From a virus (Duplodnaviria > Heunggongvirae > Uroviricota > Caudoviricetes), in the IMG/VR virus record IMGVR_UViG_2703718849_000001, positions 1 to 6,274 of that record: a stretch of DNA of 6,274 nucleotides. One strand, written 5' to 3'. A model generated the notes under the pieces. The model was given only the letters and a program-made list of their open reading frames with translations, was not told where the DNA came from and made no database searches. Below, piece after piece: positions 2,877 to 4,182 of this stretch. The translations under genes and the position numbers were made by a program. The number at the start of each line of letters is the position of its first letter. Position 1 is the first letter of the stretch.

Positions 2877-3170
2877 TCAGTCATTACTGATAGCGCCATA
2901 GCGTGAGCGGTAATTACGCAGGCGCGGGTCGATTTCAGGGAAGTGGGTATATGTGGCTTTGCGGAATGGTCGGATTGATGTCTGGTAAATTCGCTCTCGT
3001 TCTTCTTTCTCTGCAAGCCATATGCAGTGGCGAAACTCCTTTTCCTCTTTCGTTTCCTGCGGTAGAGACATTATTCGATCGTAGTTTTTTCTGAATTTAT
3101 CCAGCACCTCCGATACGGAATTGCCGGAACAGCGGCGCGCGTCATCCGCACCATACAGAGGCGCTGGCAT
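2877..3170 (-). CDS. Hypothetical protein (97 aa), basic
   Basis: ATG at 3170..3168 with AAGGA SD about 8 nt upstream; TGA at 2879..2877. No family recognised. Confidence 0.65.
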   Translation of the reverse strand: MPAPLYGADDARRCSGNSVSEVLDKFRKNYDRIMSLPQETKEEKEFRHCIWLAEKEERERIYQTSIRPFRKATYTHFPEIDPRLRNYRSRYGAISND

Positions 3171-3193: not shown

Positions 3194-3577
3194 TCAGAAT
3201 GGGATGGAATCGTCGTATACAGGAGTGTTCTGCTGGTTACTACTTTGCTGCTGCGGGCCATTTCCTGAAGCTGCAAATCCAATCTTTGCATTCAGTAATT
3301 CAAGAGTGATTGATTGACAATTTTGCCCCTGATAAACATCAACCCTGATGTTTTCTCCGGTAATTTCCACAATGCCACCTTCAACAAGAACACTACGGTA
3401 GTAATCCGCTTGCGCTCCCGGCTTGGCAAATACAACGGCGCTGTAGTTTGTCCATTCTTTCTTTTTTGTCTGGCGATCGTAATGCTGAACTCCAGCACGG
3501 ATGTTGAATCCGATATTTTCCCCGGCCTGAAACTCTCTTGCGGGCTTGTTTAGTCTTACAGTAATCGAATGTGCCAT
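3194..3577 (-). CDS. ssb: Phage SSB-like single-stranded DNA-binding protein (127 aa) with acidic C-terminal tip
   Basis: C-terminus ...NTPVYDDSIPF matches the conserved SSB tail (E. coli SSB ends DDDIPF), preceded by a Gln/Ser-rich linker. The ATG at 3577..3575 (MAHSITV...) overlaps the Erf TAA (TAATG); the track's 157-aa version is an out-of-frame upstream extension. Confidence 0.75.
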   Translation of the reverse strand: MAHSITVRLNKPAREFQAGENIGFNIRAGVQHYDRQTKKKEWTNYSAVVFAKPGAQADYYRSVLVEGGIVEITGENIRVDVYQGQNCQSITLELLNAKIGFAASGNGPQQQSSNQQNTPVYDDSIPF

Positions 3578-4182
3578 TAAGCAGCAGCTCCTTCTAATTC
3601 GTCTCGTCTGATGTTGTAAACGTCCTGCGCTTTGTGCTGCTCCGGTGTGCCTTCGAGCATCTTCCACGCTTTGGCGAACGCCTGTTTAAGCTCTTCTACG
3701 GTGTTTTTCTGCATTGCTGCGTCAGTGAATGCTTTTAGAACCTGTTCAGGTGTAGGTAATGGTTTTGATTGCTTTGCTGCTGCGTTCTGCTGATGTTTAT
3801 GCTCGTCGGTATCTGCATCTTTCGCATCATCAATGCCGAATAAACCATTGAGGCAATACTTGCGTGCATAAGAGCTTGTAGCTCCCGTAACTTGTGCAGA
3901 ATCCATTCCTTTCTTGCTTTCTTCCTCTCGTGCAAGAGCGGTTGCTTTATGACTGTTTTCGCCATCAGTAATAGTTGCCGTTGCTTTCACGTAATACCGA
4001 TCACCAATCAACACAACTTCATCGCTGATTGATAAAAACAGGCCATTCAGTAACGGCTTAACACCCTCAAGAATGTCTTCGCAGCTTCTGTATTTATATT
4101 TGCCGAATGAGTTGTATTGATTCTTTGGCGCGTTCAGATTCTCCTGAATAGCTGCCAGCCTTGCGTAAAATTCTTTGCTCAT
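3577..4182 (-). CDS. erf: Erf-family single-strand annealing recombinase (201 aa)
   Basis: From the ATG at 4182..4180 the protein begins MSKEFYARLAAIQENLNAPKNQYNSFGKYKYRSCEDILEGVKPLL..., which matches my recollection of P22 Erf. The track's start is a TTG at 4212, 10 codons upstream. TAA overlaps the ssb start. Confidence 0.8.
   Translation of the reverse strand: MSKEFYARLAAIQENLNAPKNQYNSFGKYKYRSCEDILEGVKPLLNGLFLSISDEVVLIGDRYYVKATATITDGENSHKATALAREEESKKGMDSAQVTGATSSYARKYCLNGLFGIDDAKDADTDEHKHQQNAAAKQSKPLPTPEQVLKAFTDAAMQKNTVEELKQAFAKAWKMLEGTPEQHKAQDVYNIRRDELEGAAA

Follow-up and report, generated by a model that had tools for sequence, protein, structure and literature searches.

Gene content and synteny of the locus

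The window, the 6,274-nt stretch of viral DNA (Caudoviricetes; IMG/VR record IMGVR_UViG_2703718849_000001), carries a prophage gene directly after erf on the minus strand. The reading frame of this gene begins with an ATG at 3577-3575 and closes with a TGA at 3196-3194, so the limits of 3194-3577 that had been assigned to it earlier are exact. Its 127-aa translation is MAHSITVRLNKPAREFQAGENIGFNIRAGVQHYDRQTKKKEWTNYSAVVFAKPGAQADYYRSVLVEGGIVEITGENIRVDVYQGQNCQSITLELLNAKIGFAASGNGPQQQSSNQQNTPVYDDSIPF, and the C terminus reads ...NTPVYDDSIPF. The gene order in the window is erf, the SSB-like gene, and abc2, which is also the order in HK97, and abc2 begins 23 nt beyond the SSB-like gene. The features of this part of the window are as follows.

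3194 to 3577, minus strand: SSB-like coding sequence, an ortholog of HK97 gp40 ("SSB-1b"); 127 aa plus TGA, from the open reading frame and its translation
3575 to 3579, minus strand: TAATG overlap of the erf stop and the SSB-like start, reading catta on the plus strand; translational coupling
3577 to 4182, minus strand: erf, encoding a ssDNA-annealing protein of 201 aa, immediately upstream (Pfam PF04404, ERF, E of 3e-44)
2877 to 3170, minus strand: abc2, an anti-RecBCD gene, immediately downstream (Pfam PF11043, E of 6e-63; PHROG_656)

A longer open reading frame of 157 aa with a GTG start (3194 to 3667) was dropped because its extension overlaps erf and because the vast majority of full-length homologs begin where the ATG at 3577 lies. 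Homolog N termini that match this start read MAHSIT.., MHSIT.., MSHT.., and similar among the 120 nearest protein clusters.

Curated models say little about the product. It falls into phrog_44 (PHROG_44), "single strand DNA binding protein," with an E value of 3e-24, and it had no Pfam match at an E value of ≤1 and no NCBIfam match at an E value of ≤10, with PF00436 and the SSB models included in the search. None of the 120 nearest clusters has a precomputed PF00436 match, and three of them carry unrelated domains. A single-sequence search of the PDB sequences gave no useful match. Most GenBank records, and PGAP, name the gene a "hypothetical protein." A first scan of viral contigs with the gene returned near-identical lambdoid copies only. 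With 3194-3577 of the window as the query, the gene was found in 579 of 5,426 complete Escherichia coli genomes (~11%), at 692 places of which 688 are chromosomal and with up to 4 copies per genome.

The linkage to an annealase gene extends well beyond the lambdoid phages. Among 57 distinct relatives with a usable upstream flank, many of which are close enterobacterial relatives and therefore not independent, an annealase was present within the two upstream genes in 49 (Erf in 45 and a Rad52/Sak-type protein in 4). The remaining relatives adjoin Mu-Gam-like genes, exonuclease-like genes, or genes of unknown function. The hosts of the relatives include Escherichia, Salmonella, Yersinia, Serratia, Cronobacter, and Vibrio, and further relatives come from marine metagenomes. 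An erf gene lies beside the SSB-like gene in Vibrio phage K67 and Salmonella phage PMBT35, the neighboring annealase in Yersinia phage vB_YenM_06.16-1 is a Rad52_Rad22-family protein, and several marine contigs have Erf alone or Erf plus an exonuclease at this place. abc2 is often absent from the relatives, and the annealase link is kept there. The TAATG arrangement is annotated in both HK97 and the Yersinia phage. The overlap with the erf stop, together with conserved synteny with Erf and Rad52-type annealases in distant relatives, supports the connection to Erf that was part of the original prediction.

The slot of the gene is identical to that of abc1 in P22 (erf-abc1-abc2), with abc2 directly downstream, and the product might instead assist the anti-RecBCD protein Abc2 as an Abc1-like accessory, modulating RecBCD together with Abc2 and having no SSB role. 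We regard this as very improbable because the protein has no similarity to P22 Abc1 (hhalign probability, 0.3%) and because the annealase neighbor persists without abc2 in relatives from Vibrio, Yersinia, and marine phages. The predicted fold, which is an SSB-type OB fold, also speaks against it.

Predicted fold and relation to SSB

The predicted domain layout of the protein is that of an SSB, with a basic OB domain (pI 8.8), a disordered linker, and an acidic tip.

3260 to 3577, minus strand: OB-fold domain, residues 1 to 106 (AlphaFold2 pLDDT of 89 to 95; Foldseek; hhalign to E. coli SSB)
3218 to 3259, minus strand: Q/S/N-rich disordered linker, residues 107 to 120 (pLDDT below 50; variable in sequence and length among homologs)
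3197 to 3217, minus strand: tip YDDSIPF, residues 121 to 127, from the translation; resembles the E. coli SSB C-terminal tip (SSB-Ct) FDDDIPF

An AlphaFold2 model of the monomer, built on a 48-sequence family alignment, had a mean pLDDT of 81.7. Residues 1 to 100 fell in blocks of 89 to 95, except for residues 81 to 90 at 72, and residues 107 to 127 were disordered at values below 50. The modeled strands (residues 3-8, 14-18, 21-34, and 39-51), followed by a helix (55-63) and further strands (69-74, 76-84, 87-95, and 98-103), have the topology of an OB fold of the SSB/PriB type, for which a five-stranded barrel with a helix between strands 3 and 4 is characteristic. Structure prediction had been proposed as the check for an OB fold, and it returns one: the best 50 PDB matches of the model in Foldseek are all bacterial or mitochondrial SSBs or PriB, with E values from 4e-5 to 1e-3, a probability of 1.00, and TM-scores of 0.4 to 0.6. 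Among the viral models of BFVD, named phage SSBs recur as fold matches, many of the matches being without a name.

Profile comparisons point in the same direction. Aligned by hhalign, the family matched E. coli SSB with a probability of 93% and an E value of 3e-7 (residues 32 to 94 of the family and 41 to 102 of E. coli SSB) and matched a 63-sequence alignment of phage-borne canonical SSBs with a probability of 86%. When the family profile was compared with the PDB sequences, the best and only match was the yeast mitochondrial SSB Rim1, at an E value of 0.06. The ssDNA-stacking residues of E. coli SSB are W40, W54, F60, and W88. In both hhalign runs, as judged by sequence alignment, Y/H32, F50, and Y82 of the family fall on W40, F60, and W88, respectively; the two runs disagree on W54, which one of them pairs with W42 and the other pairs with Y45. 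His55, a tetramerization residue of E. coli SSB, aligns with an invariant Thr or stays unaligned.

A HMMER profile of the family retrieved 216 clusters at an E value of ≤1e-3 from 1.84 billion proteins (representatives), which is far fewer than the canonical SSB family would give, and among the sequences inspected, none resembles a canonical SSB. Taken with the lack of a curated-model match, these results suggest that the proteins form a sequence family of their own, whose relation to SSB is visible only in the profile and the predicted fold.

The protein had been described as having a much shorter body than E. coli SSB, and this proved to be wrong, as the OB domain spans ~106 aa compared with ~112 aa in E. 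coli SSB. The difference in overall length (127 aa versus 178 aa) is due to the linker, which has ~14 aa versus ~56 aa, and not to the OB body.

One residue of the OB domain sets the window copy apart. Codon 87 of the window gene (3317-3319), in the hairpin between the last strands, encodes Cys (GQNCQS), whereas the 181 related loci examined all have Gly87, as do 110 of the 111 clusters of proteins; Cys occurs in the window alone. As the sole Cys at an otherwise invariant position, it may impair this allele: the family would be functional, and the window copy would be a decaying prophage gene in which G87C hurts folding or DNA binding. Model confidence falls to 72 in the block that contains the substitution, and no identical copy of the gene occurs in the 5,426 complete E. 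coli genomes, where the closest copy reaches 99.5%. However, the open reading frame is intact, the start, the coupling, and the tip are kept, erf and abc2 are intact, and a single loop substitution is often tolerated. On balance, a damaged allele seems to us improbable.

Linker and C-terminal tip

The C-terminal tip was the central element of the original prediction, and here the resemblance to the host protein holds: DDSIPF equals the DDDIPF of E. coli SSB at 5 of 6 positions, and position −7 is aromatic in both (Y versus F). The Q/S-rich linker was likewise read correctly, the residues before the tip, SGNGPQQQSSNQQNTPV, being rich in Q, S, and N and predicted to be disordered. The reference E. 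coli SSB sequence, which is identical to that of PDB 1EQQ/4MZ9, ends in ...NEPPMDFDDDIPF.

In a survey of the 120 nearest protein clusters, of which 96 appear to be full length, 74 of the 96 end in x-P-[FWY], and 67 of these 74 have acidic residues just before this ending. Mean pairwise identity is 0.68 over the last 7 residues, 0.21 over the preceding 14 residues, and 0.56 over the OB domain. As read from this conservation, the tip is more than a chance ending; it is under selection and more constrained than the linker.

Tip variants differ among the clades. More distant relatives have longer tips, EPPMDFDDDIPF or NEPPADWDEDIPF, that are near the host NEPPMDFDDDIPF; the Yersinia phage member carries EEPPMDFDDDIPF and Vibrio phage members carry NEPPADWDEDIPF and NEPPQGFDDSDIPF, which nearly reproduce the host sequence. 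In the lambdoid clade the tip is shortened to [FY]DDSIPF, and in a Serratia/Rahnella clade it reads WDD[ET]PPF. Since PPF-tipped and IPF-tipped relatives both adjoin Erf, the tip variant does not track the type of annealase.

Many genome maintenance proteins dock onto SSB through its SSB-Ct tip. Host partners may bind the tip of the window protein less well because Ser replaces the third Asp, and the same may apply to the relatives that have PPF in place of IPF. Annealases of the RecT/Redβ type recognize approximately the last 7 (7 to 9) residues of SSB (bioRxiv 10.1101/2020.04.14.041095; PMC11611040).

In some phage SSBs, the IPF tip is followed by a conserved extra segment (...DDDIPF-APVTLPFPRHAIHAI, APIGLPYPRHAIYVI, or IPFAPIGLQ...). 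Extensions of this kind are shared by two SSB families that are otherwise unrelated, namely, canonical phage SSBs (L087, L089, L093, L121, L122, L127, L137, L138, L145, and L156) and the SSB-like family (P0129, P0157, P0161, and P0265). Such an extension would bury the carboxylate of the C-terminal Phe that is normally bound by SSB-Ct readers.

Tip-less relatives and a candidate −1 frameshift outside the window

A few relatives of the SSB-like gene appear to be truly tip-less (L338 1501-1911, L178 1501-1989, and L281 268-735). Near the stop of these three, there was no acidic-IPF sequence in any frame, and heptamers of the A_AAT_TTY or G_GGT_TTT kind were also missing; a single different X_XXY_YYZ match, CCCAAAT, precedes the stop of L281 by 17 codons. 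Those tip-less relatives for which a flank was available still lie in Erf-containing modules.

Seven other distinct relatives present a different arrangement, in which the annotated open reading frame ends without a tip and an acidic-IPF tip is encoded in the −1 frame just past the zero-frame stop. These are L254 1501-2013 (the same as L168 4001-4513), L256 1501-1971 (the same as L173 3001-3471), L322 1501-1986, L172 3001-3471, L335 1160-1690, L337 249-746, and L336 901-1383. All seven have a zero-frame X_XXY_YYZ heptamer (A_AAT_TTC, A_AAT_TTT, or G_GGT_TTT) 6 to 12 codons before the stop, and all seven have a 5- to 6-bp hairpin that starts ~4 nt after the heptamer. The hairpin pairs in 78.6% of cells, compared with ≤50% in slid controls; the observed value was reached by 14 of 500 shuffles. 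One compensatory variant of the hairpin is present (AGCACC/GGTGCT). The −1 frame encodes 20 to 28 aa ending in the acidic-IPF tip, and in three of the seven a stop directly follows IPF. From its sequence, this arrangement looks like a candidate programmed −1 frameshift that would give tip-less and tipped SSB isoforms. No description of a frameshift-controlled SSB tip was found in the literature searched. The window gene differs from these candidates in that its tip is encoded in frame.

The C-terminal domain of Erf

Erf of the window is 74% identical to P22 Erf by tblastn and 76% identical in a MAFFT alignment. The identity is unevenly distributed, and the protein appears as a mosaic: residues 1 to 152 are nearly identical to those of P22 Erf, and the last ~50 residues are ~40% (41%) identical.

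3580 to 3765, minus strand: C-terminal domain of Erf, residues 140 to 201, a predicted three-helix bundle (AlphaFold2 pLDDT of 92.3)

The helices occupy residues 6-19, 23-36, and 41-60 of the 62-aa fragment that was modeled, corresponding to Erf residues 145-158, 162-175, and 180-199. The same three-helix domain sits on the Rad52_Rad22-family annealase of the Yersinia phage, and its reported positions are 3580-3765 in the window, 1933-2115 in L334, and 2810-2998 in L083. Its presence on a Rad52-type annealase as well as on Erf points to a shuffled, mobile module. When the 62-aa domain was used as a protein query, only close fragments were recovered. In Foldseek, the domain gave only generic helical matches with E values above 0.6, and neither Redβ nor Orf was among the best 50.

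We infer that the C-terminal domain of Erf is a candidate docking site for the SSB tip. Direct support for a contact between Erf and the tip was sought in co-variation of the domain and in the fold comparison with Redβ and was not found. Co-variation of the domain with the presence or type of the tip was rejected by three cases. First, P22 Erf, which has no phage SSB beside it, has a homologous C-terminal domain (41% identity); second, PPF-tipped and IPF-tipped relatives share Erf as a neighbor; and third, a short marine Erf occurs with in-frame and out-of-frame tips alike. Given the P22 case, a specific need of Erf for the SSB-like protein is unsupported. We speculate that P22 Erf could use the tip of host SSB, which would fit a shared tip-reading site.

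A recombination module with a probable SSB of its own

Taken together, the predicted fold, the profile matches, the SSB-like domain layout, the conserved tip, the linkage to annealase genes, and the experimental precedent of HkaK in the corresponding slot of HK620 suggest that the gene probably encodes the recombination module's own SSB, a highly diverged member of the SSB/PriB OB-fold group with a host-like docking tip. In this scheme, the SSB-like protein would be made from the early left operon and translationally coupled to Erf. It would coat the ssDNA that arises from phage recombination and replication. Its short flexible linker would present YDDSIPF, which nearly copies the SSB-Ct tip of the host, as a docking peptide, allowing Erf and the host SSB-Ct readers to bind ssDNA coated with the phage SSB in the same way that they bind ssDNA coated with host SSB. 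Points that count against this reading are the lack of a Pfam or NCBIfam match, TM-scores of only 0.4 to 0.6, the loss of His55, the Ser in the tip, the lack of a fold match between the Erf C-terminal domain and that of Redβ, the presence of a homologous domain on P22 Erf without a phage SSB, and the private G87C change.

A second use of such a tip must be weighed, namely, that the protein is a tail-bearing competitor that captures or displaces the host SSB-Ct readers (ExoI, RecQ, RecJ, PriA, and χ), with ssDNA coating being secondary. A role of this kind, which the original prediction had also raised, would be consistent with a tip that nearly copies that of the host. The C-terminal region of the window protein also lies near the short end for the family, with 28 aa after the OB motif in a range of 23 to 98, 28 aa also being the median, in a sample made up mostly of close relatives from enterobacteria. 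In addition, Bas52_0087, which has an FDDDIPF tip, has been proposed to interfere with ExoI/SbcB (bioRxiv 10.64898/2026.04.29.721553). However, a pure decoy would need neither a conserved OB domain nor stacking aromatics. In this family, the OB domain is strongly conserved and its aromatics appear to align with W40, W54, F60, and W88, with some substitution of one aromatic residue for another (Y/H32 and W/Y42). The annealase linkage is almost always present as well, and the decoy and SSB roles are mutually compatible. We therefore consider it unlikely that the protein acts chiefly as a decoy.

Beyond the reading of the gene as the module's own SSB, we tentatively hypothesize that the host-mimicking tip is dosage sensitive and is the functionally dominant part of proteins in this family. 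The window protein, with its short linker and a tip that is always made, would then serve chiefly as a hub that hands SSB-Ct readers (Erf and the host ExoI, RecQ, and PriA) to phage ssDNA. In the marine relatives, the tip would be made only upon a −1 slip at X_XXY_YYZ, which would set the ratio of tip-less to tipped protein and amount to a recoding-controlled SSB tip. We put this forward as a possibility that is somewhat doubtful at present.

Significance

The gene is of a kind that has already been described, since gp40 is listed as "SSB-1b" (PMC12315714) and HkaK is a functional analog. Identification of the gp40-type gene as an SSB is thus already known (PMC12315714), and the additions made here to the published work are small: a conserved tip that is hidden in the HK97 reference, the correction that the linker and not the body is short, and the wide range of relatives that show the annealase synteny. 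It would nonetheless be of practical value to annotate the gene firmly as a Rec-module SSB because the gene is present in ~11% of complete E. coli genomes and is still called a "hypothetical protein." Less is understood about Erf-type recombination modules than about λ Red. If Erf has a cognate SSB with a host-type tip, a simple rule may govern its access to coated ssDNA, and such an SSB could improve Erf-based recombineering.

Comparison with known systems

The closest known counterpart is HK97 gp40 (L001 3496-3885), with 96.9% nucleotide identity, 94.5% amino acid identity over 127 residues, a shared N terminus (MAHSITVRLNK), and the same slot in the Rec module, with erf (PF04404) upstream and abc2 (PF11043) downstream. 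On the basis of its AlphaFold 3 fold, gp40 was placed in the SSB functional group as "SSB-1b" (Genome Res 2025, PMC12315714). According to the same study, gp40-type proteins belong to lambdoid Rec modules and are experimentally unstudied, and ES18 SSB-1, a canonical phage SSB, is under 15% identical to gp40; the main text mentions no C-terminal tip for the SSB-1b type (PMC12315714). The two proteins differ in that gp40 ends in ...YDDSNPILI and the window protein ends in ...YDDSIPF, and in the G87C substitution of the window copy. The DDSNPILI ending is due to a 1-nt insertion near the 3' end of the deposited HK97 sequence. The insertion is either a sequencing error or a strain mutation, and it hides an SSB-like tip in the reference protein.

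Resemblance to E. coli SSB (PF00436; PDB 1EQQ, 1EYG, and 4MZ9) lies in the size of the OB domain, the putatively equivalent aromatics, the disordered linker, and the acidic IPF tip. The window protein differs in having ~15% identity or less, a linker of ~14 aa rather than ~56 aa, and Ser in place of the third Asp of the tip, and it does not retain His55 and similar determinants of the tetramer.

P22 Abc1 shares the position between erf and abc2 but is an unrelated 94-aa protein without an IPF tail, and P22 has no Rec-module SSB (PMC12315714). HkaK of HK620 ("SSB-2") likewise occupies the slot between an annealase gene, here Sak4, and abc2, and it carries a host-like tip, its last six residues NDYPPF, without which Sak4 neither binds ssDNA coated with the SSB nor is stimulated in recombineering (PMC5928155). 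It differs in its length of 195 aa and in its partner, which is the RecA-like Sak4 and not Erf. Both P22 Abc1 and HkaK were rejected as homologs of the SSB-like protein (hhalign, 0.3% and 0.2%, respectively), and HkaK, judged by analogy, is a functional analog to which the window protein has no detectable homology.

Bas52_0087 is also a phage OB-fold SSB-like protein with the host C-terminal tip, FDDDIPF, but it differs from the window protein in its two OB folds and its much greater size. It triggers DRT10 and has been proposed to engage ExoI and other host partners of SSB (bioRxiv 10.64898/2026.04.29.721553).
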